A DNA stretch of 27,657 nucleotides from Candidatus Poseidoniaceae archaeon. Lineage in GTDB: Archaea > Thermoplasmatota > Poseidoniia > Poseidoniales > Poseidoniaceae. The stretch spans positions 1 through 27,657 of the forward strand of contig JAQXFJ010000217.1 in NCBI GenBank assembly GCA_029250385.1, read 5' to 3'. Both the position numbers and the translations under genes were made by a program. Positions 8,436 to 27,657 of this stretch are shown here, piece by piece. Positions within the stretch are counted from its first letter, which is position 1. Every line of letters starts with the position of its first letter. The notes below the pieces were generated by a model that saw nothing but the letters and a program-made list of their open reading frames with translations, was not told the origin of the DNA and ran no database searches.

Positions 8436-8465
8436 ATTAGAACCAATTGGAATGAGACGAGGGAC

Positions 8466-9374: not shown

Positions 9375-9378
9375 GATA

Positions 9379-10092: not shown

Positions 10093-10093
10093 A

Positions 10094-10936: not shown

Positions 10937-11021
10937 AACCTTGCCAAGGCAATCACCTTGAAGATTTATTCTATTATGGTTTAATCCAATATTACATAGA
11001 ATAGGACATTTTAGAACAAAT

Positions 11022-11798
11022 ATGAGTGAAACCGCTCCTTTGGTAAAAGCATTAGATATGGCCAAAAAATATGGCGACTTTATTGCCCTCCATCCGTTGA
11101 ATGTTGAAGTCCATTCAGGTGAATTTTTTGGGGTTTTTGGACCGAATGGGGCAGGTAAGTCGACTTTCATAAAATTGCTAACCGGTCAATTGAAACCAAG
11201 TAAAGGGCGAATTGAGGTCTTGGGGATCAATGCGATTAAACACCCCCAAAAGGTGAAAGCGAATATTGGTATTGTTCCTGAGTCTGAATCGCCTCCATCG
11301 TATCTAACACCAGTAGAGTTTTTGCAATTTGTTGCAAAACTTAGAGATTTAGACGAGGTAGATGCCAAGGTAGAATACTGGATGGAATGGTTTGGCCTTG
11401 AGGATAAGCGTAATACTATGTGTAAAGATTTGTCAAAGGGTCAGCGGCAAAAGGTTATGTTAGCATCTGCTTTTATCCACAAACCAAAGTTGCTATTTTT
11501 AGACGAGCCATTTGCCAATTTAGATCCGATTTACCAGCGCAAATGCCGTGAGTGGCTATTATCTCATGTTAAAGATGGAGGGACAATATTTCTGTGCTCG
11601 CACGTACTTGAAATGGCAGAGAGAATGTGTAATCGAATGGCGATAATTAACGATGGCAAGGTTTTGGCAGCAGGCACTGTTAGGGGCTTAAAGCAAAATG
11701 TTGAGGAGACACTTGAAGATGTTTTCATTCGATTAGTTGGGCGTTCTATTGAAGATGTTGAAAGTTCCCCATCAGATGCTGAAAATGAAGAGGAATAG
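11022..11798 (+). CDS. ABC transporter ATP-binding protein (ABC-2/CcmA-like), 258 aa
   Basis: Walker A GPNGAGKST, signature LSKGQRQK, Walker B LFLDEP and H-loop CSH. Confidence 0.95.
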   Translation: MSETAPLVKALDMAKKYGDFIALHPLNVEVHSGEFFGVFGPNGAGKSTFIKLLTGQLKPSKGRIEVLGINAIKHPQKVKANIGIVPESESPPSYLTPVEFLQFVAKLRDLDEVDAKVEYWMEWFGLEDKRNTMCKDLSKGQRQKVMLASAFIHKPKLLFLDEPFANLDPIYQRKCREWLLSHVKDGGTIFLCSHVLEMAERMCNRMAIINDGKVLAAGTVRGLKQNVEETLEDVFIRLVGRSIEDVESSPSDAENEEE

Positions 11799-11800
11799 TA

Positions 11801-13498: not shown

Positions 13499-13570
13499 TT
13501 CATATTGAGTGCGACTTCATGCATGTTGAATAATAGGTACTTTCATGAAGTGCCAACACCACCACCTGTC

Positions 13571-14125
13571 ATGGGAAAAGTGGTTGCCGTGTGCGGGATG
13601 CCGGGTTCAGGCAAAGGCGAGTTCGCTAAGATTATTGCTGATCAAGACGTGCCAGTTAGGTCGATGGGAGACATGGTAAGAGCAGAGGTTTCCCTAAGAG
13701 GTCTTGACCCAAGTCCTAACATATTTGGCGAAGTGGCTGCGGATTTAAGAGCTAAACATGGTGAAGAAGTTCTTGCAGTACGCCTTGCAGACGAAGTAGA
13801 TAGTTTACTTCTAACTCACGCAGTAGTGCTCATTGAGGGGATGCGCGGCACAGCCGAATTTGAAATATTCTCGAACAGGTGGCAAGTGGATTTTAGCAGT
13901 ATGGCAATAGTAGCGTCGAAAGACATCAGATTCGCAAGAACTCAATCCCGGGGTCGCTCTGAAGATGGCAATTACGCACAATTTGAAACCCGTGAAAAAC
14001 GCGAGGCGGGATGGGGTTTGATGGACCTCATCAATACGGCTGATTTCACTATAAAAAACGAAAGTAGTCTTGAGGATCTAACCTACCAATCACAAATTTG
14101 GTTGTCTGGCCTTTCAGAAAATTGA
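13571..14125 (+). CDS. UPF0200 / dephospho-CoA-kinase-like nucleotide kinase, 184 aa
   Basis: VAVCGMPGSGKGE, SMGDMVR, IEGMRG, RGRSED, E..WG and AD..I.NE motifs. Substrate not established. Confidence 0.8.
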   Translation: MGKVVAVCGMPGSGKGEFAKIIADQDVPVRSMGDMVRAEVSLRGLDPSPNIFGEVAADLRAKHGEEVLAVRLADEVDSLLLTHAVVLIEGMRGTAEFEIFSNRWQVDFSSMAIVASKDIRFARTQSRGRSEDGNYAQFETREKREAGWGLMDLINTADFTIKNESSLEDLTYQSQIWLSGLSEN

Positions 14126-14195
14126 TTTTGGGACCCTCATTTAATTACTAGTGCGGCCATTTCATACAGTGTTTTCACCGAAGAGTTATAGTTGT

Positions 14196-14221
14196 CCGAT
14201 GCGTGTCATAGAATGCATCGG
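14196..14221. promoter_or_regulatory. inverted repeat CCGATGC-N12-GCATCGG upstream of the pilus operon
   Basis: Perfect 7-bp arms (14196-14202, 14215-14221) between a TTATA element (14186-14190) and the G-rich SD of the ATPase. Confidence 0.4.
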
Positions 14222-14235
14222 CGGGGGGTAATGGT

Positions 14236-15768
14236 ATGGCAAGGAAACGTGGAAAGCGCGGCGGCGGCGGAAAACGGCAGCGCGCACAGCAACGCGCACA
14301 ATACGATGAGTTGGACAAATATCCAGTAATGCCTCCGCACGCATTCGCTAGAGTAGTTCGTGATAAACAGACTCTGAATATCATTTACCAGATTATCGAA
14401 CCTCCTATGACCAAGAAAGAAGAGCAGTATCGTGATGAAATATTAGACATATTTATCCGTTCTCTAACTGCTAATATTGAAGAAATCGATGCTGACCCAG
14501 AAGCTTATTTGAGGACTGCAATGGACAAGGTAATCAAATCTTACGGGATGAAGATTAACAAGAAATCCAAATCTAAGATTTTTTATTATCTGCGCCGCGA
14601 CCTGATTGGTTACGGCGAGATGGATGTTTTGATGAATGACGCCAACGTCGAGGATATTTCTTGTGATGGAACCAATGTGCCGATTTTTGCATATCATCGA
14701 AAATTTGAATCCGTAGAAACTACATGTCTTTGGCCAGATGATCACTCACTAGAATCATATGTCATCAAATTAGCACAACGGTGCGGCAAGCACATCTCCG
14801 TTGCGGATCCACTACTGGATGCGACGCTTATGGACGGTTCTCGAATTGTCATGAAACTTGGTCACGAAGTCTCAACCAGAGGTTCCTCGTTCTGTATTAG
14901 AAGATTCAAAGAAGATCCTTTCTCTCCAGCGGATATTATTGCTTTCCGTACAATGTCATCACTCATGGTTGCGTATCTATGGATAGGGTTTCAAAATGAA
15001 GTTCCAATGCTGTTTGTCGGCGGTACCGCTTCTGGAAAGACAACAACTCTTAACGCAATGTGCATATTTATCCCGTGGCAAATGAAAATTGTCTCTATTG
15101 AATCTACCAGAGAAGTAAACATACCTCAACCTAATTGGGTTCCTGGTCTTACAAGGCAAGGTTTTGGTGGAGAATCTACCGAAGGCGTGATTGGGGAGTT
15201 CGAACTGCTCAAAGCTGCATTGAGAGAGCGGCCCGAATACATCATTGTCGGAGAAATTCGTGGTGCTGAAGCATATGTTCTGTTTCAAGCAATGGCTACT
15301 GGTCACTGTGCTTATTCTACAGTGCACGCAGACTCTGTTCCCTCACTCGTTCACCGTCTTGAAAACAAACCAATCGACATTCCTCGTGTTCTATTACCGG
15401 CTCTTGAAGCATGTTGTATTCAAATTCAAACTAGGATTAACGGCAAGCGTGTAAGACGAACTAAGCAACTTGTAGAGATTGTCGGTATAGATCCTAATTC
15501 ACTGGAAGTTATCACCAATGAAGTGTTTAGATGGGATGTTACTTCAGATGACTTTGTCTTCAGTGGAAAGTCATATGTCTTAGAGAAGATAATGGTTAAA
15601 TTAAATTATTCACAAGATGATATGCGCAGAGAATTAAGAACTAGGAAAAGAATTCTAGAATGGATGGTTCTGAATGATATAAGAAAAGCAGATCAAGTAT
15701 CTCAAATCGTTACAGAATACTACGTTCGTCCGAATGAGATTCTTGCTCGTGTTGACGGTTTGCGTTGA
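14236..15768 (+). CDS. type II/IV secretion (type IV pilus) assembly ATPase, FlaI/TadA/VirB11 family, 510 aa
   Basis: EDISCDG, LMDGSR, GGTASGKTT, SIESTRE, LRERPEYIIVGEIRGAEA, AMATGH and STVHA motifs. Confidence 0.95.
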   Translation: MARKRGKRGGGGKRQRAQQRAQYDELDKYPVMPPHAFARVVRDKQTLNIIYQIIEPPMTKKEEQYRDEILDIFIRSLTANIEEIDADPEAYLRTAMDKVIKSYGMKINKKSKSKIFYYLRRDLIGYGEMDVLMNDANVEDISCDGTNVPIFAYHRKFESVETTCLWPDDHSLESYVIKLAQRCGKHISVADPLLDATLMDGSRIVMKLGHEVSTRGSSFCIRRFKEDPFSPADIIAFRTMSSLMVAYLWIGFQNEVPMLFVGGTASGKTTTLNAMCIFIPWQMKIVSIESTREVNIPQPNWVPGLTRQGFGGESTEGVIGEFELLKAALRERPEYIIVGEIRGAEAYVLFQAMATGHCAYSTVHADSVPSLVHRLENKPIDIPRVLLPALEACCIQIQTRINGKRVRRTKQLVEIVGIDPNSLEVITNEVFRWDVTSDDFVFSGKSYVLEKIMVKLNYSQDDMRRELRTRKRILEWMVLNDIRKADQVSQIVTEYYVRPNEILARVDGLR

Positions 15769-15783
15769 TAGGGGGATACAAGT

Positions 15784-16803
15784 ATGGAACTTACTGCATG
15801 GCAAAGATTCTGCAATAGAATCCTCGGAAGAGTGTTGAAGAAACGCGCCCGCAGAGATGCCAAACTGTCAGAGAATCTGATAAAGGGCTCCATGGGAATT
15901 ATGCCCGAAGTATATCTCTCAACAGTAATTTTCACTTCGATAGCTATCGCTGTTGTATGTTGGGGGATTGTAGGGATTTTCTTTTTGCCTGAAATAGGGG
16001 TAATTGCCTTTTGGGAGAGCCTTCAAGATCCAGCAACAGTTAACGCATGTTTAGATTGGGAATACTGGGAACCAGAATTAATTGATAAATCCAAACCAGG
16101 AAACGGGTGTCCAGATTATGCAACGCGAATATTCCCTCCACCGCTAAAATTGTTAATTCTAGTTCTTGGCGGTGCAATCATTCCATATGCAGGTTTCTTG
16201 CTTGTTAGAGGCGGTGCAAAAAGAGAAGCAGACAGACGAGGCGCTCAAATCGAAAAGTACCTACCATATGCAGCATCATACACTGCAGCAATGTCTGCAG
16301 CAAATGCAACCCCAGCCAAAATATTCCGTTCATTAGCAATGAATAAAGACATTTACGGAGATGTTTCAGAAGACGCCGGATTAATTTACCGAGATGTTAC
16401 CCTTTTGGGTTATGACTTAATTACCGCGATTAAGATGAGTGTTGATAGAGCAGCATCAATTTGGTTGACTGAGTTTTTCCAAGGTATGGTTGGAACCTTA
16501 TCTTCGGGAGGTTATCTCAAGTTGTATTTCCTTAATCGTGCCGAACACTATATGCGTGAAAACCGCACTAGGCTACAACAATTCCTTGAATCAATTGCCT
16601 TGTTAGCAGAATCGTATATTGTAGTCGCAGTAGCTATGCCATTGTTCCTTATTGTGATGCTGGTAATTATGTTCTGGGTTTCAGGTTCTGGTGCTCAGAT
16701 GTCTGAAGGGATGCTTTATGGTATCGTTCTAGGATTCATACCAATGATTCATCTGGCATATGCAGTATTAGTCTACACGAGCAGTAAAGATCAAGAAATG
16801 TGA
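15784..16803 (+). CDS. type II secretion system F-family platform protein (TadB/TadC/FlaJ-like) 1, 339 aa
   Basis: GIMPEVY; IEKYLPYA..Y...MSAA; G.DL.TAI; EFFQGMV..L.SGG.L..YF; LALLAESY. Confidence 0.88.
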   Translation: MELTAWQRFCNRILGRVLKKRARRDAKLSENLIKGSMGIMPEVYLSTVIFTSIAIAVVCWGIVGIFFLPEIGVIAFWESLQDPATVNACLDWEYWEPELIDKSKPGNGCPDYATRIFPPPLKLLILVLGGAIIPYAGFLLVRGGAKREADRRGAQIEKYLPYAASYTAAMSAANATPAKIFRSLAMNKDIYGDVSEDAGLIYRDVTLLGYDLITAIKMSVDRAASIWLTEFFQGMVGTLSSGGYLKLYFLNRAEHYMRENRTRLQQFLESIALLAESYIVVAVAMPLFLIVMLVIMFWVSGSGAQMSEGMLYGIVLGFIPMIHLAYAVLVYTSSKDQEM

Positions 16804-16812
16804 GGTGAAAAA

Positions 16813-18426
16813 ATGGCTAGGAAGAAAAAGAAAAAACTAGTTGTTGAACTAGATCTTCCTAAAGATGATAAGACGCTAAAGAACCTGTATATCATCATCT
16901 TTTTCTCAGTAATCTTAGGTTTATCTTCGGGTATTATGTGGGTGACAAATTCGGGATTTATCCCGACTGCAAATGGCGAGCCAATGTTCACCAATGTGTT
17001 TTGTGGAGCTACTGCTCAAGATGATCTGGGTAACGATTATTCTGCAGAATTTAGTGGCAACCTCAAACCAACTTACCAAGCAAATGAATCATGTTCAATA
17101 TTGCAGGATGACGCAGACCATCTAGAGTGGTCAGAAAGTCCATGGGTAAATTTCGTCTCCAAAGCCAAAACGTTTGATGTTCCTGGAATGCCAGAAGAAA
17201 ATAAAGGCACTGTAGTAATCCAACAGCCATTATCTCTCGATTGCACTGTTGAAGCAACAACCCCAACAAATTATACAGTAATCATAAGAGATTCCAATGC
17301 CAATTTGGTGGATTTCTTTGAGGGTAAAACTGGCAAGGCGAGTGACGTTTGTAATATTGAAGTCGACAACATGGAGCCAGATACCCGATATGAAATTGCG
17401 ATATTTTCGCTTGAAGACGGTAAGAGAATCAGTTCAGCCCAATTCGATATGACTGTTGACTTTTATGACGGAATACCAACTAATATGAATAATAAATCAT
17501 TTTGGCTTGGTCCCAAAGTAGAGTTGGGACCTCTTGAATTAAGACCAATGATATTTCTTAACTTCTTTGGCTTAACCTTCTTTTTGCTACTATATCCAGC
17601 ATCTTACTATTGGGAGAAAGTTGAGACAAGGAAAAATGAAATTGAAGCAAAATTCCCTGATTTCCTAAGAGATATGGCGGAGTACTGGAAAGGTGGTCTT
17701 TCTATGACAGTTGCTGTACAGACATTGGTAAAATCAGAGTACGGTGCGCTTAATGATGAAGTAAAGAAGATGTCTGACCAACTAAGTTGGGGAATAAAAT
17801 TTAGCGACGTGATAAAACAATTCTCAGAACGTGTTGGTACTCCTTTGGTTAAGCGTGCTATTACCCTTATTGCAGAAGCGGATAGGGCTGGTGGAAAAAT
17901 CTCTGATATTCTGGTTACTGCTGCCAATGACTCAAGAGAAATCAAATTCTTAGAAGGAGAACGAACGAGGGCTATTGGGTCATACATTGCGGTTATATGG
18001 ACTTCTTATTTCGTGTTCCTAGGGGTAATTACTCTGCTAGGTAAGATATTTATTCCAGCGATTGCAAAATCAAACTCAGGTGATGAAGGGAGCGGAGACT
18101 CTGGTGGGGCAAATATTGGGAACATGACAATAAGGGCAATCGATCCACTCTTTTTCGTCACTGTTTTCTACTACGGCGTCACAATGCAAGCAATCGGTAA
18201 CGGATCTATGGCAGGACTAATGCAAAATGGCAGATTTTCGGCTGGTTTCAAACACTCAGGTATGATGATTGTAGCTGCACTACTTGCCTTTAATTTATTA
18301 GTATTCAGTCCAGACCTAATCGGTGATTCGAGTTATGGATTTGCCCAAGTGATCACTACTTCTGACTCAATGTATACTGTGGGGCTTAATCCTTCAGGTG
18401 GTGCTTTTGTGCCTGCGTCTATTTGA
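16813..18426 (+). CDS. type II secretion system F-family platform protein 2 with a large extracellular insert, 537 aa
   Basis: IEAKFPDFLRDMAEYWKGG, YGALNDEV..MSDQLSWG, F.ERVGTP and AGGKISDIL motifs. About 200-aa soluble insert after TM1. Confidence 0.88.
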   Translation: MARKKKKKLVVELDLPKDDKTLKNLYIIIFFSVILGLSSGIMWVTNSGFIPTANGEPMFTNVFCGATAQDDLGNDYSAEFSGNLKPTYQANESCSILQDDADHLEWSESPWVNFVSKAKTFDVPGMPEENKGTVVIQQPLSLDCTVEATTPTNYTVIIRDSNANLVDFFEGKTGKASDVCNIEVDNMEPDTRYEIAIFSLEDGKRISSAQFDMTVDFYDGIPTNMNNKSFWLGPKVELGPLELRPMIFLNFFGLTFFLLLYPASYYWEKVETRKNEIEAKFPDFLRDMAEYWKGGLSMTVAVQTLVKSEYGALNDEVKKMSDQLSWGIKFSDVIKQFSERVGTPLVKRAITLIAEADRAGGKISDILVTAANDSREIKFLEGERTRAIGSYIAVIWTSYFVFLGVITLLGKIFIPAIAKSNSGDEGSGDSGGANIGNMTIRAIDPLFFVTVFYYGVTMQAIGNGSMAGLMQNGRFSAGFKHSGMMIVAALLAFNLLVFSPDLIGDSSYGFAQVITTSDSMYTVGLNPSGGAFVPASI

Positions 18427-18438
18427 GGAGAGGATTAA

Positions 18439-18879
18439 CTGAAAAGTAGTGAAGAAGGTCAGATTCACATTCTTGAAATGCTGACGTTATTTTGGTTATT
18501 TTTCATGTCGGCCACATTTTTGATAAGAATTGATGTACCGGATTCACGCTCTATAGCCCATGATGCTAGTTTAGAGGCCGCGGGTGAATCAGTCCTGCAG
18601 TATGGTTTGGGATTAGATGCAGAAATAAACGGCGAAAATAGGATTGTTGAGTTACTTGCAGATTCAGATTATAATGGTGCTTGTACACTTCTGCAAGAGG
18701 CACTAATAAACGGTAAACAAGCCAACTGTTGGCTTGCTAAAAATAGTGCAACATCAAACCCTTACGGGCTTGTAGGCAGTTCCTCTGGACCTACTGTGAC
18801 AGTCCATCATTTGGTCACAGTCAATTCAGATGCTTGGACAATTAGTCTAACGCTGTGGAATATAGGCGGTGGTGCCTGA
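18439..18879 (+). CDS. pilin-like protein with class III signal peptide (CTG start), 146 aa
   Basis: Frame is open from CTG 18439 (after TAA 18436), giving KSSEEG|QIHILEMLTLFWLFFMSATFL. GAGGAGAGG SD lies 5 nt upstream. The track starts at ATG 18478. Confidence 0.65.
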   Translation: MKSSEEGQIHILEMLTLFWLFFMSATFLIRIDVPDSRSIAHDASLEAAGESVLQYGLGLDAEINGENRIVELLADSDYNGACTLLQEALINGKQANCWLAKNSATSNPYGLVGSSSGPTVTVHHLVTVNSDAWTISLTLWNIGGGA

Positions 18880-19322
18880 TGCGCCAAACGGTATATCAAA
18901 CAACCAAAGATGATCGAGCTCAAATGCTATTAGCGACCGGGGTAGTACTTCTTCTGTCCTTATTGTCAATGGCTGTTTTTAGTGTAAAAGTTGCAGGTTT
19001 AACATCTGCCCATGAGGCAAATTCAGATTCAGTAATTGAGACTACAAAAGAAGTTATGAACGAACTCCCATCACTCGCCGAAAACCGTACTGAGTTGTGG
19101 ATAAATGGCGGTTTAGACCGGTTAGAGGCTGCAGATATTGCCATGGAGAGTATTCACGACGACCTCCTCCATCATGGAGAGATAAGAGGTGTAGAGGTGA
19201 AGATATTGAATATCACAACATCTGTGGTTAACGCATCATCTATATCGATATCATTAGAATTAGGAGTCACCGATGATTCCTCTACTTTGGAAACCGATTT
19301 CACTTTTGTTATCGCTGCTTAG
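18879..19322 (+). CDS. pilin-like protein with class III signal peptide, 147 aa
   Basis: TGATG overlap with the previous gene. N-terminus ...KDDRA|QMLLATGVVLLLSLLSMAVF (basic-Ala, Gln+1, hydrophobic stretch). Confidence 0.72.
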   Translation: MRQTVYQTTKDDRAQMLLATGVVLLLSLLSMAVFSVKVAGLTSAHEANSDSVIETTKEVMNELPSLAENRTELWINGGLDRLEAADIAMESIHDDLLHHGEIRGVEVKILNITTSVVNASSISISLELGVTDDSSTLETDFTFVIAA

Positions 19323-19977
19323 TTTGCTTCTCATTCCAAGCTATATCCAAGTAATGTTCAATTCTTTCATGGTCGCTACTAACTCGCGAAATATCTACCA
19401 CAGGCCAAGCTGAAATTTTGGAGCGTTCAATAAGGCCATCCTGTATCTTTCTAATTCTGTCAAAATTTGCTATGTAACGATCTGGTCTACGAAAAGAATG
19501 AGCATCTCGAGATTTAATCATTTCCCGGTGCTTATTTTGATCGCTTACAGCCATAATAATCCCAACTGCAATTCCTCCTGAGTCAATCCAATTCCTAATT
19601 AATCTATCACTGGGTATGATGTGCACACCCTCTATCAGCAAATCAATACCTTCGCGCATAGCACGGTTTATTGTTGCCTCTATGCCATTCTCAACAGCCT
19701 GGCAAGTATCTAGCCAATCAAGAACAGGGTCATTAGCTTCGCCGATTGAGAAAGAGGAACGATGCAAAGCTAAGTTTTCAGCATCGATGTCATATGTTCG
19801 AATTATTTCTCGGATAGCGTCTGTTGAGAGAAGTCTAGCAAAGTTACTCTTGGCGGCAATTTTCATTGCAACAGTAGATTTCCCAGTTCCAGTTGCACCG
19901 GCGATAATCAACAGTCTTGGTGGTCGGTTCGCAATCGCTCTGGCCGTGGCATCAGCAAGACCGATTGTTTGAGCCAT
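19309..19977 (-). CDS. 2-phosphoglycerate-kinase-family P-loop kinase, 222 aa
   Basis: IAGATGTGKSTVA, LLSTDAIREIIR, LH.SSF, REGIDLLIEGVHIIP and RY...F..IR.IQ motifs. ATG 19977 preferred over TTG 20001. Confidence 0.8.
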   Translation of the reverse strand: MAQTIGLADATARAIANRPPRLLIIAGATGTGKSTVAMKIAAKSNFARLLSTDAIREIIRTYDIDAENLALHRSSFSIGEANDPVLDWLDTCQAVENGIEATINRAMREGIDLLIEGVHIIPSDRLIRNWIDSGGIAVGIIMAVSDQNKHREMIKSRDAHSFRRPDRYIANFDRIRKIQDGLIERSKISAWPVVDISRVSSDHERIEHYLDIAWNEKQTKQR

Positions 19978-20093
19978 GTGTCTTGTAGGACAATCTGTCA
20001 AATATAGTTATCATGGAAAATCTCTGATATGGGCCAATTGCTAATCTTGATTGGGAGGCGAACACCTTTGAACGGTCACTTCATGGACGGTTT

Positions 20094-21530
20094 ATGAGCG
20101 AAGAAGAGATGTATATCGCAGGCGAGTGGACTAGTTCTGAAAATGGCGATTATAGCGAAGCAATAAACCCCGCAACAGGTGAAACTATTACACGAGTTCC
20201 AAAAGCGTCAGTAAATGATGTAAACCGTTGTGTTTCAGCATCCAGGGATGCTTTAGTTAGTTCTGAATGGAAGAACATTGATCCTGCACAACGAGGTAGA
20301 ATTCTCAATAAAATGGCAGCAGCTACTTATGGTGCAGCAAAAGAATTAGCCCAAATAGAATCTGAAAATAATGGGAAAACCTTTCGTGAAGCTCTATCAG
20401 AAATAAGATATGGTGCATGGACATTAGAGTACTTTGCGGGCCTTTCAGACAAAATTGAAGGCTCAACAATACCAGTTCCAGGTAATCGTCTAAATTACAC
20501 ACTTCGCCAACCACTTGGCGTAACCGCACACATTGTCCCGTGGAATTTCCCTCTCCAACTAGCTCTTCGTTCCATAGCTCCAGCATTAGCCTCCGGCTGT
20601 ACAGTAATCGCTAAGCCTGCATCATGGACTCCACTTTCTCTGTTAGCATGGATGAAGAAAATGGAAGAAGCCGATGTAGGCCTGCCAACTGGTGTTTTGC
20701 AAGTAATAACCGGTTCTGGAGGCTTGATTGGTGACGCTCTTGCAGGACACCCAGGCGTGGATGGAGTGGTACTGACTGGGGGTGTGCCAACAGGTAGGAC
20801 TGTAATGGCAAAAGCTAGTGATAATCTGACACCGGTTACTCTTGAACTTGGAGGGAAGGGGGCCAATATTGTATTCCCAGATGCGAATTTAAAATATGCC
20901 GCTAAAGCAATTTGTTTTGGTATTTTCATGAATGCCGGACAAATGTGCTGGGCAGGTTCTAGATTGATTGTCCATGAAGAGGTTCACGATGAATTAGTAG
21001 ATGCGGTCGTTGCTGAAGTGAGTAAATGGAAGGTCGGGCCAGGAATGGCTGAAGGTGTGCGTATCGGCAGCCTAGTACACACTAGCCACAGGAGTGAAGT
21101 GCTAGAAAAATTAGCTTTGGGTCTCTCTCAAGGCGGCAAGATTGTTTGTGGTGGTAATGCAGTAGATGGAGAAGGTGCTTTTATGGAAGCAACCGTTGTA
21201 ACTGGAATTGGAGCAGATAACTCATTATTCAATGATGAATTATTTGGCCCGGTTCTATCTGTAACCAAATTTTCGACAGAAGCAGAGGCATTAGAACTTG
21301 CTAATCATTCTGATTTTGGTTTACTAAATGGGATTTGGACCAACAATCTAAGCCGAGCTCACAAACTCGCTAGAGATTTAGAATCAGGAATGATTTCAAT
21401 TAATGAATACCCAATTACCTTCCCACAAACTGCGTTTACTGGATGGAAGAAATCTGGTATTGGAATAGAGCAAAGCAAGGATGCTCTAAGATTCTACACC
21501 AAGGTAAAGAATGTTAACATCAAACTTTGA
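20094..21530 (+). CDS. NAD(P)-dependent aldehyde dehydrogenase, 478 aa
   Basis: PWNFP, KPAS, LELGGK (catalytic Glu), NAGQMC (catalytic Cys), ELFGP and K.SGIG motifs. Confidence 0.95.
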   Translation: MSEEEMYIAGEWTSSENGDYSEAINPATGETITRVPKASVNDVNRCVSASRDALVSSEWKNIDPAQRGRILNKMAAATYGAAKELAQIESENNGKTFREALSEIRYGAWTLEYFAGLSDKIEGSTIPVPGNRLNYTLRQPLGVTAHIVPWNFPLQLALRSIAPALASGCTVIAKPASWTPLSLLAWMKKMEEADVGLPTGVLQVITGSGGLIGDALAGHPGVDGVVLTGGVPTGRTVMAKASDNLTPVTLELGGKGANIVFPDANLKYAAKAICFGIFMNAGQMCWAGSRLIVHEEVHDELVDAVVAEVSKWKVGPGMAEGVRIGSLVHTSHRSEVLEKLALGLSQGGKIVCGGNAVDGEGAFMEATVVTGIGADNSLFNDELFGPVLSVTKFSTEAEALELANHSDFGLLNGIWTNNLSRAHKLARDLESGMISINEYPITFPQTAFTGWKKSGIGIEQSKDALRFYTKVKNVNIKL

Positions 21531-21539
21531 GGTGAGATT

Positions 21540-22322
21540 ATGAGTGTTTCATTCAGCGATATGGGCCATGGAGTTCGCTTGATTCAGTTTTCTGGCCAGT
21601 CCGCAACACAATCATTTTCAAGAACTTTTTTGCCTAAAATCGCCAAAGCCATAGATGATGGATTAACCAACACAAGCGTTCGGGCAATGGTATTAACGGG
21701 TGAGGGCAAATTTTTCTCTGCTGGTGCAGATATCAACGCCTTTGCTAAGGCAATTGAAGACGGGGATGCTCCTCAATTAATTCGAGATCTTACTGGAGTG
21801 CTCCATCCTTTACTTGTACGAATGCGCCAATCACCTACCATTTGTGTGGCGGCTCTCAACGGCGCATGTGCAGGAGGCGGACTTGGTCTAGCCTTGGCAT
21901 GTGATGTGCGAATTGGCTCACCTAGTGCCAAGATGGCTGCTTCTTACTCTGGCATGGGCCTTTCGCCTGATGGTGGAACAACATGGTTGCTGCCTCGCTT
22001 GGTCGGTGACCAAATCGCAAGACGATTTTTCTTTGAAAATGAAATTTGGTCAGCTGAAAAAGCTAATCAATTAGGGGCAATCGATACTATTGTCGAACAA
22101 GATTCTCTCCTTGATTCTGCTCTAGAAATTGCACTCAAATGGTCCCAGTGGGGTAATCATACCAAAGAGGCAACTAAGCATCTACTAGATGTTCAATCTG
22201 TGCAAGATTTCGAGACTCATCTAAAACATGAACGTACATTGATTGAAGCAGCGGGAACTACTGATGCCTTCAAAGAAGGCGTAACGGCATTTATTGAAAA
22301 GCGTAAACCACACTTTGAGTAA
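21540..22322 (+). CDS. crotonase-fold isomerase, PaaG-like, 260 aa
   Basis: FSAGADI, NGACAGGGLGLALACD and GLSPDGGTTWLLPRLVG. Lacks both crotonase Glu and has Asp at the PaaG catalytic position. Confidence 0.8.
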   Translation: MSVSFSDMGHGVRLIQFSGQSATQSFSRTFLPKIAKAIDDGLTNTSVRAMVLTGEGKFFSAGADINAFAKAIEDGDAPQLIRDLTGVLHPLLVRMRQSPTICVAALNGACAGGGLGLALACDVRIGSPSAKMAASYSGMGLSPDGGTTWLLPRLVGDQIARRFFFENEIWSAEKANQLGAIDTIVEQDSLLDSALEIALKWSQWGNHTKEATKHLLDVQSVQDFETHLKHERTLIEAAGTTDAFKEGVTAFIEKRKPHFE

Positions 22323-23210
22323 TCACTCTGGAAGTTGGCACTCTTCTGCTTCGCCAGAGGACCAATCATAGATTCCCATACTAGTTTTTTTGCCAAGGCG
22401 ACCAGAGGCAACTAGTTTTTCCATTAATGGGTGAGGTGCGTATGAATCATCATCAAATGATTTCTGTAGATTTTTTAGAATATCTCTTCTAACATCCAAT
22501 CCAACTAAATCGGTTAGAGCTAACGGGCCCATCGGGTGTTTGTAACCTAACACCATCGCAGTGTCGATATCTTTTGCGCTTGCAACTCCGTCTGCAAGCA
22601 TTCGAATTGCCTCATTTCCTAACACAACTCCTAATCTAGATGTAGCGAATCCTGGAATGTTATTTACTAAAATTGTGGTTTTATTCATTTGCATACCTGC
22701 TTGTTGAGCGATTTCAATAGTCTTCTGTGAACATAAATCGTGTCTAACTAACTCTAACAATTTCATTATCGGTACGGGATTAAAAAAATGCATACCGATG
22801 ACTCTTTCTGGACATCCTGAGGCAGTGGCTAAATCGGCAATTGAAAGAGATGATGTGTTAGTTGCTAGTATGCAACTTTGATTGGTGTATTTTCCTAGTT
22901 GCTCAAAGATTTGAGATTTTAATTTTGGAATCTCTGGTACTGCTTCAATAACTAAATCAGCTTGTTTTACCGCTGCTTTCATATCGGTAAATTGGGTTAT
23001 GTTTTGTGACCAATCTTGTTTTTGTTGCTGAGTTGTTTTCCCTCTTGCAATCCCCTTTTCCCAAAATGAATCAATAGTTTTCATACCCTTTTCTAAGCTC
23101 TCTGGAAAAGCATCAAACAGGTTAGTTTGCCATCCACTTTGAGCACAAACCTGGGCAATACCTGCCCCCATTGTTCCAGCGCCAATAACAGTCACGGTCT
23201 TAATCGACAT
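22323..23210 (-). CDS. 3-hydroxyacyl-CoA dehydrogenase (PaaH/Hbd-like), 295 aa
   Basis: GAGTMGAGIAQ, EAVPE, ATNTSSLSI, GMHFFNP, GYKHPMGPL and GRLGKK motifs. Confidence 0.94.
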   Translation of the reverse strand: MSIKTVTVIGAGTMGAGIAQVCAQSGWQTNLFDAFPESLEKGMKTIDSFWEKGIARGKTTQQQKQDWSQNITQFTDMKAAVKQADLVIEAVPEIPKLKSQIFEQLGKYTNQSCILATNTSSLSIADLATASGCPERVIGMHFFNPVPIMKLLELVRHDLCSQKTIEIAQQAGMQMNKTTILVNNIPGFATSRLGVVLGNEAIRMLADGVASAKDIDTAMVLGYKHPMGPLALTDLVGLDVRRDILKNLQKSFDDDSYAPHPLMEKLVASGRLGKKTSMGIYDWSSGEAEECQLPE

Positions 23211-23232
23211 GGTCAACCCAGTAGGTTAAACT

Positions 23233-24156
23233 TCATGATGCTTGCTTGTCGTTTTTGCTTTTTGACTGAGCGATAAAAACTCCACCTGTGATAAGAACGA
23301 AAGCAAACGCCAATGACAATCCAAGTTTTTCGTCAAGCAATAGATATCCTCCCAAGATTCCAAACGGCGGGACTAGATAAACATACAAAGCACTCATCGA
23401 GGCACCTATTTTGATTATACCATCAGCGAACCACACATACGCAACAACGGTAGAAAAGATTGCTAGAAACACTATTCCAATCCAGCCATCTGGACTTGGC
23501 CAAATAAATCCTTGTGTAACAGTTTCAACAGCCATTATCGGGGTCAATAATATCAGACCCGCTACAGATGACCAGACGGTTAATTCTAGCGGATTTAATG
23601 GCTTAGTGGAATTTTGTTTAGGTTCAGTCATGGTTTTCTTCATTAAAATCGTGTTACAAGCCCATGCAAGGGCTGCACCTGCAATCAGCAAGTCCCCAAT
23701 AGCACGATCCACAAAGTCTATGTCCACATTGGGTGAGTAGTAAAATAATATTCCAACTCCGGTAATTCCCATTAATAATCCAGTGATTAAATTCCGATGC
23801 ATACTTTCCTTAAGGAATATAACTGCTAATATTGCAGTAAAAATAGGATTGAAGGTAATCATGAGTGAAGCATCACCAGCTGCGGTATATTGCATTCCAA
23901 ACATGAAGAATGCTTGATAGACACAAGTTGAGAAAAACCCGATCAGAAATAATATCTTCCACTCTGATTTATTTGGAAACATCCACTGCCTTGAAAATTT
24001 AAGATAAGCCAAAAAGCAGAATGTGGCTATGATATAACGAATCCAAGCGGCGGTAAAAGGTAGAACATCATTGGCTACAACTCTGCCTGCCGGCCAACCA
24101 AATCCCCATATTACTGCAACTGTAAACAATTTTAAGTGAGTTGCTAAATTACTCAT
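23233..24156 (-). CDS. EamA/DMT-family transporter, 307 aa
   Basis: Ten TMs in two repeats; IWG..W, G.QYT.AG.AS, PIFTA.LA..FL.E and LLDEKL motifs. Confidence 0.9.
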   Translation of the reverse strand: MSNLATHLKLFTVAVIWGFGWPAGRVVANDVLPFTAAWIRYIIATFCFLAYLKFSRQWMFPNKSEWKILFLIGFFSTCVYQAFFMFGMQYTAAGDASLMITFNPIFTAILAVIFLKESMHRNLITGLLMGITGVGILFYYSPNVDIDFVDRAIGDLLIAGAALAWACNTILMKKTMTEPKQNSTKPLNPLELTVWSSVAGLILLTPIMAVETVTQGFIWPSPDGWIGIVFLAIFSTVVAYVWFADGIIKIGASMSALYVYLVPPFGILGGYLLLDEKLGLSLAFAFVLITGGVFIAQSKSKNDKQAS

Positions 24157-24710
24157 TCAAACCGCTCCAAACCTAATTGGAGCATTCTTGATCGAGGTAA
24201 GCCTATTTCTGGTAATCCTTTCGCCGGAGCATACATCTTGAGTCCTTCGATGCGCGAGACGTATAAGCCATAACTAGCCATGTCTCCTAGATTGAACGGG
24301 GTTTCTAGTCCCAAATCTGTCAGCGCTTGACAGGCTTTTTCACTGTAGATGGGGTACAGGTTAGTGGAAAAATGCATCCATTCAGAAATTCGCTGAGTGT
24401 CTATTTCGTCAATAGTAAGCAAATGTTCTAGCAGGGCCACATCCGGGTAAGAAACAGTTCGAATAATCATTTCAATCTCATTGACTATTTCTTCTGGGAA
24501 GGCAAAGGGCTTTCGGTTTGACCATTCTTCTGCGACCTGAATGTGTTCCATAGATGCCTTGTCTTGTATGGCAAACAAAGTTTTGGAGTAATCTTCGTCA
24601 TCGATACTATCAGCGACTAAAGTGGGTAATTGTTCATAGAAATTTTCACATCTTTCGACGTTGATACCGTACAGCGAGACTGGGATCATTTGACCACCGT
24701 AAAGATTCAA
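24153..24710 (-). CDS. hypothetical protein, possibly a degenerate HhH-like fold, 178-185 aa
   Basis: 4-bp overlaps with boxB (TTG 24710) and eamA (ATGA). Alternative ATG 24689 has a GGTGG SD. Motif ISEWMHFSTNLYPIYSEKACQAL. Confidence 0.7.
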   Translation of the reverse strand: MNLYGGQMIPVSLYGINVERCENFYEQLPTLVADSIDDEDYSKTLFAIQDKASMEHIQVAEEWSNRKPFAFPEEIVNEIEMIIRTVSYPDVALLEHLLTIDEIDTQRISEWMHFSTNLYPIYSEKACQALTDLGLETPFNLGDMASYGLYVSRIEGLKMYAPAKGLPEIGLPRSRMLQLGLERFE

Positions 24711-25867
24711 GCGCTGGCGCCAATGCCAGAGTCGATTTGTCTTGTAGACATTGGTTTGTTAGCAATCCACTCTTGATTGAACAATTCTTTGAGGTCTATT
24801 TCGTCTTGTTTCCTAGGCATTACTTCGTGCAGATAAGCTTGCCAATCGTCGTCGTTGCCTTGGAAAGGAGTTCCGTCCACGTTGAAGTTGCTGCCTTTGG
24901 CTGCCCCGATGTCGCGGTTAAAGTTTTCATGAGGAACATACAGTTTCTCGACACCCTCTGGTAAGTAGCCACAAAGTTTCTCAACTTCTCTGACAATCTC
25001 ATCATGGTAATGTCCACGGCCTTCTTCATTGAGTACTTCTTTGTTAACTTCAATTCCAGCATCTTGTTTTTTACGTTCGTCCCAGCGTCCTTTGACTCCC
25101 CACACGTATGCCCAATGAGCAGATGATGAAGCATCGACACCAAACAGGTCGTGAGCGGTTGATACCCACTTGTTGATGTATCTCTGAAGCATGTCTAGCG
25201 GTATGACACCAGCCTTGATGATTCTCCTAAGGCCATTGGAACCAGTTCCCAAGTGGAATGATTCTTCTTTGAGCATTGGTCCCATTGAAGCAGCAAGTGG
25301 TTTGAATGCAGAAGTCGATAGCATTCCGAGTTGAAATTTACCGTCACGGTCAACAAACATAGTGTAACAAAAGAAGTCGAGCCAGTGAGGCATTGGGCGA
25401 TTGAAAGCACCAAGTAATCGGTCGCCATCTTGCGCATTTCTTTCTAACAGTTTTTGCGCCTCTCTACGTCCTTGCTGGCCAAAATAGGTCATCAATAGGT
25501 AGGCCATTTGCCATCCATGTCGCTGTTCTTCAGCCATGATTCTAGCAGCAGCATATCGGTCGTAATCAGTGGGTGCTGATGTGAGTAGATGTCTTTGTTG
25601 TTCAACAGATGCAAATTCTGTGTCACCCTGAACAGTGATCATTGCAATTAGCGCATCTCGCATACTTTGGTGTGGTACCTGGAGTGCTCTTTCCCACTTA
25701 GCTCGGCCTTCATAGTCGCCAAATTCGATTACATCTCCAGCTCGCTCCCAGTCAAACAGTACTGAGAGTTCAAAGTCTCCTAGCCAATCAGGGTTGAATC
25801 CAACTCTTTGTTGCCAATCGCCAAAATTTGTTATCCATTCATCCCAAGTGTTTGGTAGGTTGTCCAT
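24707..25867 (-). CDS. boxB: BoxB-like di-iron acyl-CoA epoxidase (PaaA/PaaC/BoxB ferritin-like family), 386 aa
   Basis: QGDTEFASVEQQRHL, EEQRH, LL..YFG..GR.EA..LLER, WLDFF.YT.FVDRDGKFQL, S.F.PLA and MLKEESFH, collinear with BoxB motifs as I recall them. SD GGGGTG precedes ATG 25867. Confidence 0.88.
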   Translation of the reverse strand: MDNLPNTWDEWITNFGDWQQRVGFNPDWLGDFELSVLFDWERAGDVIEFGDYEGRAKWERALQVPHQSMRDALIAMITVQGDTEFASVEQQRHLLTSAPTDYDRYAAARIMAEEQRHGWQMAYLLMTYFGQQGRREAQKLLERNAQDGDRLLGAFNRPMPHWLDFFCYTMFVDRDGKFQLGMLSTSAFKPLAASMGPMLKEESFHLGTGSNGLRRIIKAGVIPLDMLQRYINKWVSTAHDLFGVDASSSAHWAYVWGVKGRWDERKKQDAGIEVNKEVLNEEGRGHYHDEIVREVEKLCGYLPEGVEKLYVPHENFNRDIGAAKGSNFNVDGTPFQGNDDDWQAYLHEVMPRKQDEIDLKELFNQEWIANKPMSTRQIDSGIGASA

Positions 25868-25903
25868 ACACACCCCAGGAGTGGGTCTTGCTTATTGTCT
25901 TTG

Positions 25904-25915
25904 CGAACATGTTCG
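25904..25915. promoter_or_regulatory. perfect 12-bp palindrome CGAACATGTTCG, candidate operator
   Basis: Exact self-complementarity, in the 53-bp gap between the HTH gene and boxB, 37-48 bp upstream of the boxB ATG. Confidence 0.55.
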
Positions 25916-25920
25916 TATTT

Positions 25921-26532
25921 CTATATAATTTCGTCATAAAATGTGTCCACTATTTTACTTTCGATAGCATGAAGCATAACTGAGATTGTAGATTTGGAGG
26001 AACTGGTAATTTCAGCCAACTGGGTGATTGAAATTTCTCTAGGTATGTTCCAATATCCTTTGCGTTTGGCCAATTCAAAAATCTGTGTTTGTCTTGTAGT
26101 TAGTAGCTTATCATTGCTTGAGCGAGTTGACTTCAAACGCATCGGTATCTCGTCTGAATTTATTTCCTCGATTAATTGTTTAGCTTGACTGGGAGAACAC
26201 TGTATTGTCCAGTCAGCCCATCCATCTATCACTTCAAAAGGAGTTCTTGGGACCACACCAACAACGCGCAAGGCTTTGATAAATCCACCACCTCCACTGG
26301 CTATTGTCACTGTAGCCTTGTTAACGTCAAGTAAATTGACGGACTCCACGCCAGATAAATGCTCTAATTGGTTTAGTAATAGTTCATCAGTACTAATTTG
26401 AGCTGTCCCTCTCCCCTTGCCAAGAGGCATGGTTTCGATTATCTGCAATGTGGATGATGGACTTTCACGAGTAGCTTCGCCAGCCCAATGTCCATCCGGT
26501 AATCGAACTTCAATTCTTACCACTTGGGACAT
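25921..26532 (-). CDS. Bat-like (HTH_10) archaeal transcription regulator, 203 aa
   Basis: C-terminal LTTRQ.QI..LA...GYWNIPREISITQLAE...SSKSTIS..L..IESKI matches HTH_10. ATG 26532 avoids overlap with glpX (alternative 26559). Confidence 0.88.
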   Translation of the reverse strand: MSQVVRIEVRLPDGHWAGEATRESPSSTLQIIETMPLGKGRGTAQISTDELLLNQLEHLSGVESVNLLDVNKATVTIASGGGGFIKALRVVGVVPRTPFEVIDGWADWTIQCSPSQAKQLIEEINSDEIPMRLKSTRSSNDKLLTTRQTQIFELAKRKGYWNIPREISITQLAEITSSSKSTISVMLHAIESKIVDTFYDEII

Positions 26533-26536
26533 ATAA

Positions 26537-27493
26537 TCACTTTTTGTGAATACGGTCATGCCTTGTCAAAGTGCCTGCTTGTACGTCAATTAGTTCTGCA
26601 TAGGTGTGCATATCGCCGTTTTCAAAAATTTTCACACCCGGTAGGTAGCCATCACAAACTCCAGAGGCGACAAAAATCGCGTCATCTGAGCGACATAAAT
26701 CTTTAGCATCCCAAAGCCTGGTTAAATCATCATCTATCATTTGTTCGGCACGCGCTTCTTCTTCATCAGATCTAAACACTAATCGCCCTTCAAAAACACC
26801 ACCGATTCCGCGTAGTGCAGTGGCAGTGATTACTCCTTCAGGTGCAGCTCCAATTCCCAGTAACATGTCATGTTCACCATCTGGTCTTGCAGCCCAAAGT
26901 GCAGCCGAGATGTCACCGTCTCCAAGTAGGTGGAGTTGTGCTCCAACTTGTTTAATCTCCTTGAATAAGTCAGTATGGCGCTTTCTATCAAGTGCAATAA
27001 TACGAACTTCTTCAATTGGTTTGTCTAGCACAGATGCGACTTGTTCGATGTTGTATGCAACCCCTGCATCAAGATTAATGTGGCCTTCCATTTCTGGCCC
27101 TGCGGCAATTTTGTCCATGTAGCAATCAGGAGCGTGGAGCAGAGTGCCTCTTGGTGCTGCTGCTAGAACTGCAATTGAATTTGGTAAGTTATCTGCACAA
27201 TTATTTGTACATTCTAGCGGGTCGACAGCTATGTCGATAGCCGGTACTAGTGGGTTGCCTATTTCTGAACCAAGTTGTTCACCGATAAAGAGCATCGGCG
27301 CTTCGTCCCTTTCACCTTCACCAATGGCGACTCGACCATCGAATGGGACTTTGTCAAACGTACTGCGCATTGCTTCTACAGCCGCATCATCAGCAGCCAT
27401 TTTGTCGCCTTTACCGCGCCATTTTGCACTTGCTATTGCGGCCATGTCCACGGCGTCGAGAAAGTGGTCAGATAGGTCCGATACTGTGCCCAT
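26537..27493 (-). CDS. glpX: class II fructose-1,6-bisphosphatase GlpX, 318 aa
   Basis: GKGDKMAADDAAVEAMR, GEGERDEAPML, DIAVDPLE, DR.RH, DGD and GIGAAPEGVITA motifs. Confidence 0.93.
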   Translation of the reverse strand: MGTVSDLSDHFLDAVDMAAIASAKWRGKGDKMAADDAAVEAMRSTFDKVPFDGRVAIGEGERDEAPMLFIGEQLGSEIGNPLVPAIDIAVDPLECTNNCADNLPNSIAVLAAAPRGTLLHAPDCYMDKIAAGPEMEGHINLDAGVAYNIEQVASVLDKPIEEVRIIALDRKRHTDLFKEIKQVGAQLHLLGDGDISAALWAARPDGEHDMLLGIGAAPEGVITATALRGIGGVFEGRLVFRSDEEEARAEQMIDDDLTRLWDAKDLCRSDDAIFVASGVCDGYLPGVKIFENGDMHTYAELIDVQAGTLTRHDRIHKK

Positions 27494-27541
27494 GTACCAC
27501 TATGGTAATGACCATCCAATGAATGATGCGGTCGGTTTATA

Positions 27542-27657
27542 TCAACCAAATTTCAATTTTTCAATTATTCTCACATCACAAATTTCAGTATTAGGGTACT
27601 GTCCCGTAGAATCTTTTTCAAATGATTTTATCATATCTAGGGCACATAATAGACCCG
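27542..27657 (-). CDS. moaC: MoaC (cyclic pyranopterin monophosphate synthase), 3' fragment only
   Basis: Manual translation from 27655 gives GLLCALDMIKSFEKDSTGQYPNTEICDVRIIEKLKFG*, matching the archaeal MoaC tail (L...DM.K..EKD..GQYP.T.I..I.V..K). Absent from the ORF track. Confidence 0.8.
   Translation of the reverse strand, partial: GLLCALDMIKSFEKDSTGQYPNTEICDVRIIEKLKFG

Follow-up and report, generated by a model that had tools for sequence, protein, structure and literature searches.

A conserved gene cluster of planktonic Poseidoniales archaea encodes a compact BoxB-like diiron protein and may support oxygen-dependent degradation of aromatic acyl-CoA esters

We analysed a stretch of 27,657 nucleotides (nt), hereafter called the window, that makes up contig C347 (GenBank JAQXFJ010000217.1) of a 75% complete genome of a Poseidoniales archaeon of Marine Group IIa (MGIIa). 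A listing of open reading frames (ORFs) combined with Pfam and NCBIfam scans of the window proteins places seven genes in two convergent operons, which bears out the layout given by an initial annotation made from the sequence alone. The plus-strand operon encodes an NAD(P)-dependent aldehyde dehydrogenase (ALDH; 20094-21530; PF00171, 1.6e-155) and a PaaG-like, Asp-type crotonase that is a candidate isomerase (21540-22322; oxepin_alt 172 bits, PaaG 151 bits). The end of the crotonase gene meets without a gap, at 22322/22323, the minus-strand ORF of a short 3-hydroxyacyl-coenzyme A (CoA) dehydrogenase (22323-23216; PF02737 and PF00725). Upstream of the dehydrogenase on the minus strand lie an EamA/DMT family transporter (23233-24156; PF00892, 1.4e-44), a 178-amino-acid protein that has no Pfam match and that we call the partner (ORF 24153-24710), a compact BoxB-like diiron protein (ORF 24707-25873, opening with GTG at 25873; PF05138, 2e-16), and, directly upstream of the latter, an HTH_10 regulator (25921-26559, with an alternative start at 26532; PF04967, 5.3e-11). 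The stop of the partner gene overlaps the start of the EamA gene. Because homologues are 386 and 178 amino acids long, the likely starts of the diiron protein and its partner are ATG 25867 and ATG 24689, respectively. A perfect 12-bp palindrome, CGAACATGTTCG, occupies positions 25904-25915 between the regulator and the diiron protein and is a candidate operator.

The initial annotation had named the diiron protein a BoxB-like epoxidase. Sequence comparison supports the BoxB type and a BoxB-like chemistry, but argues that the protein, hereafter the oxygenase, is not a BoxB orthologue, because its score on the BoxB model TIGR03225 is 220.4 bits against a cut-off of 499.1 and because it falls outside the clade of true BoxB proteins. 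Counted from ATG 25867 it has 386 residues, and its match covers only positions 69-326 of the 471 in the model; true BoxB representatives score 672-908 bits. The PaaA model gives it just 41 bits. Among solved structures it comes closest to BoxB of Aromatoleum (Azoarcus) evansii (PDB 3PER, 2.4e-52; also 3PM5), and a search of the PDB yields 182 bits to BoxB versus 31 to PaaA. Identity to true BoxB proteins is ~39-44%.

Alignment with BoxB shows what this compact protein keeps and what it has changed. Using the published list of BoxB ligand and pocket residues (PMC5489048), we found all six iron ligands conserved, E120, E150, H153, D211, E240 and H243 of BoxB corresponding to E86, E116, H119, D175, E204 and H207. 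Also conserved are pocket residues Q116, T119, S123, F193 and F203 (BoxB numbering), that is, the thioester-binding Gln and four of the six residues that orient the ring. Among the remaining pocket positions, F206 is replaced by Tyr in MGIIa only and T210 by Val or Ile across the short family; the substitutions that this family carries beside the iron ligands are P121F, G151Q, L154G, A156Q and T210V/I. A multiple alignment with true BoxB proteins indicates that the ferritin-like diiron fold is retained over its full length, including the C-terminal motifs, and that N-terminal and internal deletions account for the ~90 missing residues. In an unrooted maximum-likelihood tree, true BoxB forms a long-branch clade (support 100/99) with all short forms outside it. 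Within the same tree the Thermoplasmatota sequences track taxonomy, which suggests vertical inheritance of the oxygenase in this phylum.

The oxygenase is a core gene of the order, and its neighbours travel with it. A single copy is present in 119 of the 121 Poseidoniales genomes sampled, which represent all 21 genera, and across the 301 Thermoplasmatota genomes it occurs in 91, which include every Poseidoniales family and about ten others (families carry our own labels, such as f4). It was not found in the sampled family f4, which resembles Marine Group III, nor in the large families f6, f16 and f19. Oxygenase, partner and dehydrogenase are co-directional and keep an invariant order in all 20 Poseidoniales loci compared, which represent 15 genera; the partner follows the oxygenase directly in each of them, as it does in several other Thermoplasmatota families, and the PaaG-like crotonase lies close by in 15 of the 18 loci that are not cut off. 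Beyond the order, families f29, f32, f33 and f10 carry the oxygenase-partner pair followed closely downstream by a PaaG/oxepin-type crotonase and a dehydrogenase, in varying gene orders. Since co-directionality is complete in the Poseidoniales loci and the association recurs, rearranged, in other Thermoplasmatota families and in bacteria, the arrangement is more than chance. Synteny across Poseidoniales had been named as the check on the initial annotation; the cluster proved to be syntenic order-wide, so loss of synteny cannot be held against it.

The periphery of the cluster is less constant. An ALDH orthologue adjoins it in MGIIa, in genus g15 of MGIIb (64% identity) and in family f32 (53%), and the neighbouring ALDH in most MGIIb genomes is a different paralogue at 33-37% identity. 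The EamA gene sits inside the operon in MGIIa and f2 loci and is absent from MGIIb loci, and the HTH_10 regulator is syntenic in MGIIa (47-50% identity) and in one MGIIb locus, making both mainly features of family MGIIa. At the slot of the MGIIa EamA gene, after the dehydrogenase, the inspected MGIIb loci (L047:7821-8114, L048:7356-7625 and probably L056) carry an ORF for a hydrophobic protein of ~90 amino acids. Judged by eye it resembles PQ-loop/SemiSWEET proteins, in which case it would be a non-orthologous replacement of the transporter.

The most conserved member of the association lies just beyond the window. ECH-X, as we call it, is a 270-amino-acid crotonase with both hydratase Glu residues kept. 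In the window's genome it is on contig C329, whose start maps end to end with the end of the window on the related genome G054, placing ECH-X ~4 kb upstream of the oxygenase. In MGIIb it is co-directional with the oxygenase and 59-199 nt upstream of it in 17 of 21 genomes. Outside Poseidoniales, 28 of 29 oxygenase-bearing Thermoplasmatota genomes encode ECH-X, and genomes with ECH-X but no oxygenase number only 5; relatedness keeps these genomes from being independent data points, but they come from more than ten families. Across Poseidoniales, family f32, Gemmatimonadota and Acidobacteriota, ECH-X proteins share 59-71% identity, a conservation exceeding that of the oxygenase. ECH-X is also the best match in the window's genome to the N-terminal domain of BoxC, at 75 bits versus at most 28 for its paralogues. 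The genes listed in the initial annotation are all present; their most conserved companion lies outside the coordinates it gave.

Other genes surround ECH-X on C329. The window itself ends in a GlpX-type fructose bisphosphatase gene (26537-27493, minus strand), and past it the second contig (L170:350-4990) continues with MoaE, a 442-amino-acid flavoprotein (NAD_binding_8), ECH-X, a DeoC/LacD-family aldolase and the alpha subunit of a Rieske ring-hydroxylating oxygenase. These genes may form a second oxygenase module beside the cluster.

We found the short oxygenase in bacteria as well, at 47-55% identity and in operons that supply a second, independent genomic context. A first protein search returned 4472 clusters and a genome scan at least 597 matched stretches; bacterial counts given here are among the matches listed. 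Because naive ORF calling is unreliable in GC-rich loci, genes there were placed by tblastn mapping and strand-restricted ORFs. Among ~69 bacterial loci, an adjacent crotonase is found in 61, a TetR regulator in 51, an ALDH in 28 (36-42% identity to the window ALDH) and a dehydrogenase in 17. The Gemmatimonadota operon comprises TetR, ECH-X, ALDH, thiolase, crotonase, oxygenase, a GDPD-like gene and a dehydrogenase orthologous to that of the window (45-50% identity); in nine loci the best family of the thiolase is 3-oxoadipyl-CoA thiolase (539 bits, cut-off 605). The Acidobacteriota operon comprises TetR, ECH-X, in some cases ALDH, the oxygenase, in some cases a CoA-transferase pair, crotonase, a three-subunit molybdenum enzyme and an Amidohydro_2 protein. 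In 18-20 loci this molybdenum enzyme resembles 4-hydroxybenzoyl-CoA reductase, and one of its alpha subunits, at 1022 bits, exceeds the family cut-off of 994.55. Neither BoxA nor BoxC is among the annotated genes of two representative bacterial operons. The initial annotation had envisaged a route in an archaeon; the module is not specific to archaea.

The bacterial contexts, which are independent of archaeal synteny, point to benzoyl-CoA-type substrates. TetR-regulated operons are typical of catabolism. Two further features of the bacterial loci deserve mention. A gene of the glycerophosphodiester phosphodiesterase (GDPD) family (PF03009) directly follows the oxygenase in L105:9204-9887 and in eight other Gemmatimonadota loci, at the slot that the partner occupies in archaea. 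An Amidohydro_2 gene (PF04909), from a family rich in aromatic-catabolism enzymes, lies downstream of the module in L121:15070-15927 and 34 other listed bacterial loci, and at 41-43% identity in three Thermoplasmatota loci outside Poseidoniales (L061, L063 and L071); a search of the window's genome yielded no counterpart.

The partner is a feature of the archaeal clusters and is absent from the bacterial operons. It matches no Pfam or NCBIfam family, the Pfam HhH-GPD model included. An AlphaFold model built from a 32-sequence alignment reached a confidence (pLDDT) of 91, whereas a single-sequence model reached 33 and was unusable. Searching structures widely with the better model by VIA-align returned HhH-GPD enzymes in the first four places and in the majority of the lower full-length matches, the top four being the DNA glycosylases 3N0U (Z 7.6), 8A5G (Z 6.1), 1PU6 (Z 6.1) and 3S6I (Z 5.5). 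Foldseek against the PDB gave nothing significant, and a profile search of PDB sequences gave noise only. The predicted fold is thus all-helical and HhH-GPD-like. Invariant among the 32 homologues are Y41, Y88, P89, H113, F114, L130, G134, Y147 and R175. This set contains neither Asp nor Lys, so the catalytic residues expected of an HhH-GPD enzyme are not among the invariant positions. We speculate that the partner is an accessory or docking protein, or else a new catalyst acting on the epoxide. Long open frames in GC-rich genomes had hinted at an oxygenase-partner fusion, which we rejected: the two genes lie in different frames and are not fused in any genome checked.

The remaining enzymes of the cluster are candidates for the steps of a lower pathway. 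For the PaaG-like crotonase the best NCBIfam models are oxepin_alt (172 bits, cut-off 300) and PaaG TIGR02280 (151 bits, cut-off 345). Escherichia coli PaaG (4FZW_C) ranks second among the solved structures that it matches, with 116 bits; aligned with this PaaG, the crotonase has SPD opposite IPD, keeping the Asp that we take to be the catalytic residue, and has Gly and Ser at the two hydratase Glu positions. All this is consistent with the PaaG-like isomerase of the initial annotation. The dehydrogenase had been called PaaH-like; with 330 bits on its best model, PRK09260 (cut-off 429), and 222 bits on PaaH TIGR02279 (cut-off 669; the 297-residue protein matches positions 3-291 of 503), it is a generic family member and not a PaaH equivalog. 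It is nevertheless a candidate for the 3-hydroxyadipyl-CoA dehydrogenase step. The ALDH, likewise no PaaZ equivalog, is under every equivalog cut-off in NCBIfam and is a candidate ring-cleavage semialdehyde dehydrogenase.

A canonical short-chain enoyl-CoA hydratase with two Glu residues is encoded 11 kb from the cluster (10094-10936, minus strand; PF00378, 7.8e-54). Its best NCBIfam model is PRK05809 (248 bits), with PaaF at 197 bits. In family f32 the dehydrogenase is followed by a crotonase of this type (38% identity), and in f29 and f10 by similar ones. Though only weakly linked to the cluster, the 10094-10936 gene might supply the hydratase step of a pathway.

Neither BoxA, BoxC nor a benzoate-CoA ligase was found over cut-off in the window's genome; for BoxA the same holds in two complete relatives and one further relative, in which the search covered BoxA and AMP-forming ligases, the BoxC search having covered the window's genome only. 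Thiolases number three to five per genome searched. A molybdenum enzyme resembling 4-hydroxybenzoyl-CoA reductase is encoded on contigs C30 and C239 (L172:3-1927 and L171:3944-6447), TIGR03193/4/5 being the best family for each of its three subunits, all of them under cut-off. The alpha subunit is split over two contig ends (298 and 438 bits, cut-off 994.55); the beta subunit scores 232 bits (cut-off 405) and the gamma subunit 173 bits (cut-off 258). The alpha subunit is present in 63 of 63 sampled Poseidoniales genomes, always under cut-off, the full-length ones scoring 750-835 bits.

Several observations bear on expression and control. On contigs of four marine metatranscriptomes the oxygenase and ALDH stand at about the highest depth in the 8000-27657 part of the window, although contig depth is a poor expression measure. 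A gene named boxB has been listed among the highly expressed genes of Group II archaea (PMC5069720), the sole mention in the literature that we found and a passing one; a 3-hydroxyacyl-CoA dehydrogenase, paralogue unspecified, is among the six most transcribed non-ribosomal Group II genes (PMC9723583). The palindrome CGAACATGTTCG is unique in the window, lies ~40-60 nt upstream of the oxygenase start, and recurs identically at the same position in ~30 further loci belonging to five MGIIa genera; the neighbouring HTH_10 regulator probably uses it as its operator. A half-site of the palindrome upstream of the ALDH does not establish a shared regulon, three-mismatch matches being at chance level (8 found, 9.75 expected).

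Combining these observations, we propose that the locus encodes most of an O2-dependent ring-epoxide pathway for aryl-CoA esters, most likely of the benzoyl-CoA type, that operates without BoxA and BoxC; we put the probability of this reading at roughly 60%. The aromatic-CoA route is supported because the bacterial operons pair the oxygenase with 4-hydroxybenzoyl-CoA-reductase-like and 3-oxoadipyl-CoA-thiolase-like genes. The evidence consists of homology and gene linkage, from which we infer every chemical step. An aromatic acyl-CoA would be formed first, in some cases perhaps with a contribution from the separately encoded molybdenum enzyme. The oxygenase would then epoxidise the ring with electrons from a general ferredoxin or reductase, and ECH-X, taking the place of BoxC, would open it hydrolytically. 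The resulting semialdehyde would be oxidised by the ALDH, and the PaaG-like crotonase would shift the double bond. Beta-oxidation-like steps by a hydratase, the 3-hydroxyacyl-CoA dehydrogenase and an unlinked thiolase could finally yield succinyl-CoA and acetyl-CoA. The partner would assist the oxygenase as an archaeal accessory protein and the EamA transporter would import substrate or export product; in MGIIa, the HTH_10 regulator and the conserved palindrome would control the operon.

A number of points weigh against this proposal. First, no BoxA-type reductase is linked to the cluster, and the sole BoxA-like match is an unlinked FNR-like gene at ~70 bits. Second, the source of the substrate is unexplained, because we found no dedicated aryl-CoA ligase (a complete MGIIa genome has a single AMP-forming ligase), no ADP-forming acyl-CoA synthetase and no indolepyruvate oxidoreductase, and because a family III CoA-transferase is confined to MGIIa. 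The last three were tried as sources of the CoA ester, and none gave a consistent candidate. Third, 4-hydroxybenzoyl-CoA reductase is classically an oxygen-sensitive enzyme from anaerobes, and families f29 and f23 have the oxygenase without the molybdenum enzyme. Fourth, a single-copy core gene in streamlined genomes is odd for a niche catabolic route. Fifth, the ALDH, the dehydrogenase and both crotonases are below every equivalog cut-off, the changes P121F, G151Q, L154G, A156Q and T210V/I next to the iron ligands could signify a different substrate or reaction, and no characterised or assayed member of the short oxygenase family was found in the literature. Finally, some bacterial homologues (P0126, P0128 and P0130) are solitary, with no pathway genes nearby. 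We dropped a non-pathway reading drawn from these three when the larger genome scan showed that operon contexts dominate.

Some of these difficulties would be eased if the oxygenase acted on phenylacetyl-CoA or another arylacetyl-CoA that the cell made from its aromatic amino acids. A protein-degrading archaeon would in that case use one subunit in place of PaaABCE, and PaaG-, PaaZ-, PaaF- and PaaH-like steps would come next. The neighbours do parallel the Paa set, with a PaaG-like Asp crotonase, an ALDH beside the crotonase as in a split PaaZ, a PaaF-like hydratase and a dehydrogenase. No aryl-CoA ligase was found; an internal origin of the substrate, through a two-subunit 2-oxoacid:ferredoxin oxidoreductase for which there are weak matches, would explain the core, highly expressed character of the gene, and pocket changes such as L154G could accommodate the extra CH2 group. 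Yet the oxygenase is nearer to BoxB than to PaaA by both measures (220 versus 41 bits on the family models, 182 versus 31 in the PDB), it retains the ring-stacking Phe residues as well as the Gln that binds the thioester of benzoyl-CoA, and its bacterial operons carry genes resembling those for 4-hydroxybenzoyl-CoA reductase, an enzyme whose product is benzoyl-CoA. A true indolepyruvate oxidoreductase, moreover, was not found. We therefore regard an arylacetyl-CoA substrate as unlikely.

Another way to account for a core gene is to suppose that the substrate is not aromatic. The oxygenase would hydroxylate or desaturate an aliphatic, alicyclic or heterocyclic CoA thioester, and the crotonases, dehydrogenase and ALDH would make up a specialised beta-oxidation module for some abundant marine compound. 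Single-copy occurrence, vertical inheritance and high transcript representation (PMC5069720) fit this idea, as does the strong transcription of a 3-hydroxyacyl-CoA dehydrogenase in Group II genomes noted above (PMC9723583). So do the generic beta-oxidation families of the neighbours, each under the specific cut-offs, the lack of a ligase, BoxA and BoxC in the window's genome, and the consistent substitutions beside the iron ligands. The aromatic pocket argues otherwise, F193, F203, Q116, T119 and S123 being shared with BoxB, and so does the bacterial company of 4-hydroxybenzoyl-CoA-reductase-like, 3-oxoadipyl-CoA-thiolase-like and Amidohydro_2 genes; ordinary acyl-CoA beta-oxidation, besides, requires no oxygenase. 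On balance we hold a non-aromatic substrate to be quite unlikely.

A housekeeping or biosynthetic role of the oxygenase and its partner, on a benzoyl-derived cofactor, a quinone precursor or a nucleotide-linked substrate, with the beta-oxidation genes as neighbours by conserved order only, would suit the near-universal single-copy distribution in Poseidoniales, a partner fold otherwise known from enzymes acting on nucleic acids or nucleosides, and a transporter within the operon, but we judge it highly improbable: inherited order cannot explain a linkage to crotonases, dehydrogenase, ALDH and thiolase that persists through extensive rearrangement across three phyla, and the bacterial operons lack the partner and are TetR-regulated in the manner typical of catabolism.

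If the aryl-CoA ring-epoxide pathway is correct, how does it relate to the characterised ones? It shares with BoxABCD a BoxB-type oxygenase and, in the cluster neighbourhood, an ALDH and a beta-oxidation-like lower pathway. Unlike that system, it has no BoxA or 550-amino-acid BoxC that we could find, and carries instead the 270-amino-acid ECH-X and, in archaea, the HhH-GPD-like protein; its oxygenase differs from BoxB in length, model score, position in the tree and the five substitutions beside the ligands. With the E. coli Paa pathway (PaaABCDE/G/Z/F/H/J; 3PVR, 4FZW) it has in common an Asp-type crotonase that is nearest PaaG among named solved structures, an ALDH beside the crotonase as in organisms with a split PaaZ, and hydratase and 3-hydroxyacyl-CoA dehydrogenase steps. 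It departs from Paa in the BoxB-like oxygenase, with its 41 bits to PaaA, in having no MaoC-type hydratase domain in the cluster genes and no PaaB, PaaC, PaaD or PaaE in the cluster (the rest of the genome was not searched for these), and in the short, 297-residue type of dehydrogenase (222 bits against the PaaH cut-off of 669).

Small PaaA/BoxB-like proteins of the Sulfolobus SSO1313 type (4MUD) offer a third comparison. They share the oxygenase superfamily (match 1.2e-18), and homologues of ~250 amino acids in Thermoplasmatota families f22 and f31 lie ~126 nt from an ECH-X-like crotonase. They differ from the Poseidoniales oxygenases in having 235 residues, in an identity of ~35-40% over the core, and in branching apart.

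These comparisons also change what is unusual about the locus. The initial annotation had described a Box/Paa hybrid fitting neither textbook pathway. An aromatic-CoA route does find support in the gene contexts, but Paa-type steps are already part of the lower Box pathway, so what sets the locus apart is that BoxA and BoxC are lacking, not that it is a hybrid.

Two neighbouring loci can be noted briefly. A P-loop kinase related to 2-phosphoglycerate kinase (19309-20001, minus strand; 122 bits, under cut-off) is syntenic beside the ALDH in MGIIa and several MGIIb genomes and has no evident link to the pathway. A type IV pilus-like locus (14236-19322), whose platform protein is ArlJ/FlaJ-like, is syntenic with the cluster order-wide. 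It includes two small ORFs of 133 and 155 amino acids, for which a class III signal peptide is a label of the initial annotation only, and its bin 14560-15215 is among those with the highest metatranscriptome contig depth.

Tentatively, and at somewhat less than even odds, we suggest that the cluster represents a third type of CoA-dependent aromatic ring-epoxide pathway. It would combine a compact oxygenase with ECH-X and, in archaea, a glycosylase-fold accessory protein, and would have no dedicated reductase or BoxC. In the ocean's most abundant planktonic archaea it would be core and highly expressed, and Acidobacteriota and Gemmatimonadota of soils would have it as well. For enzymology, the interest lies in a minimal BoxB without BoxA, in a small crotonase that maybe replaces the two-domain BoxC, and in the recruitment of a protein with a glycosylase fold to a metabolic operon. 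Because the family has many members in at least three phyla, one biochemical characterisation would fix many database labels such as "benzoyl-CoA dioxygenase component B" or "PaaI".

Among surface-ocean heterotrophs, Marine Group II archaea rank with the most abundant; they are viewed as consumers of protein and lipid, and we know of no cultured member. A core, expressed aromatic-CoA pathway would put aromatic dissolved organic matter in their diet. If the pathway is as proposed, Group II archaea would be a major overlooked sink for dissolved organic matter of the benzoate and hydroxybenzoate type.

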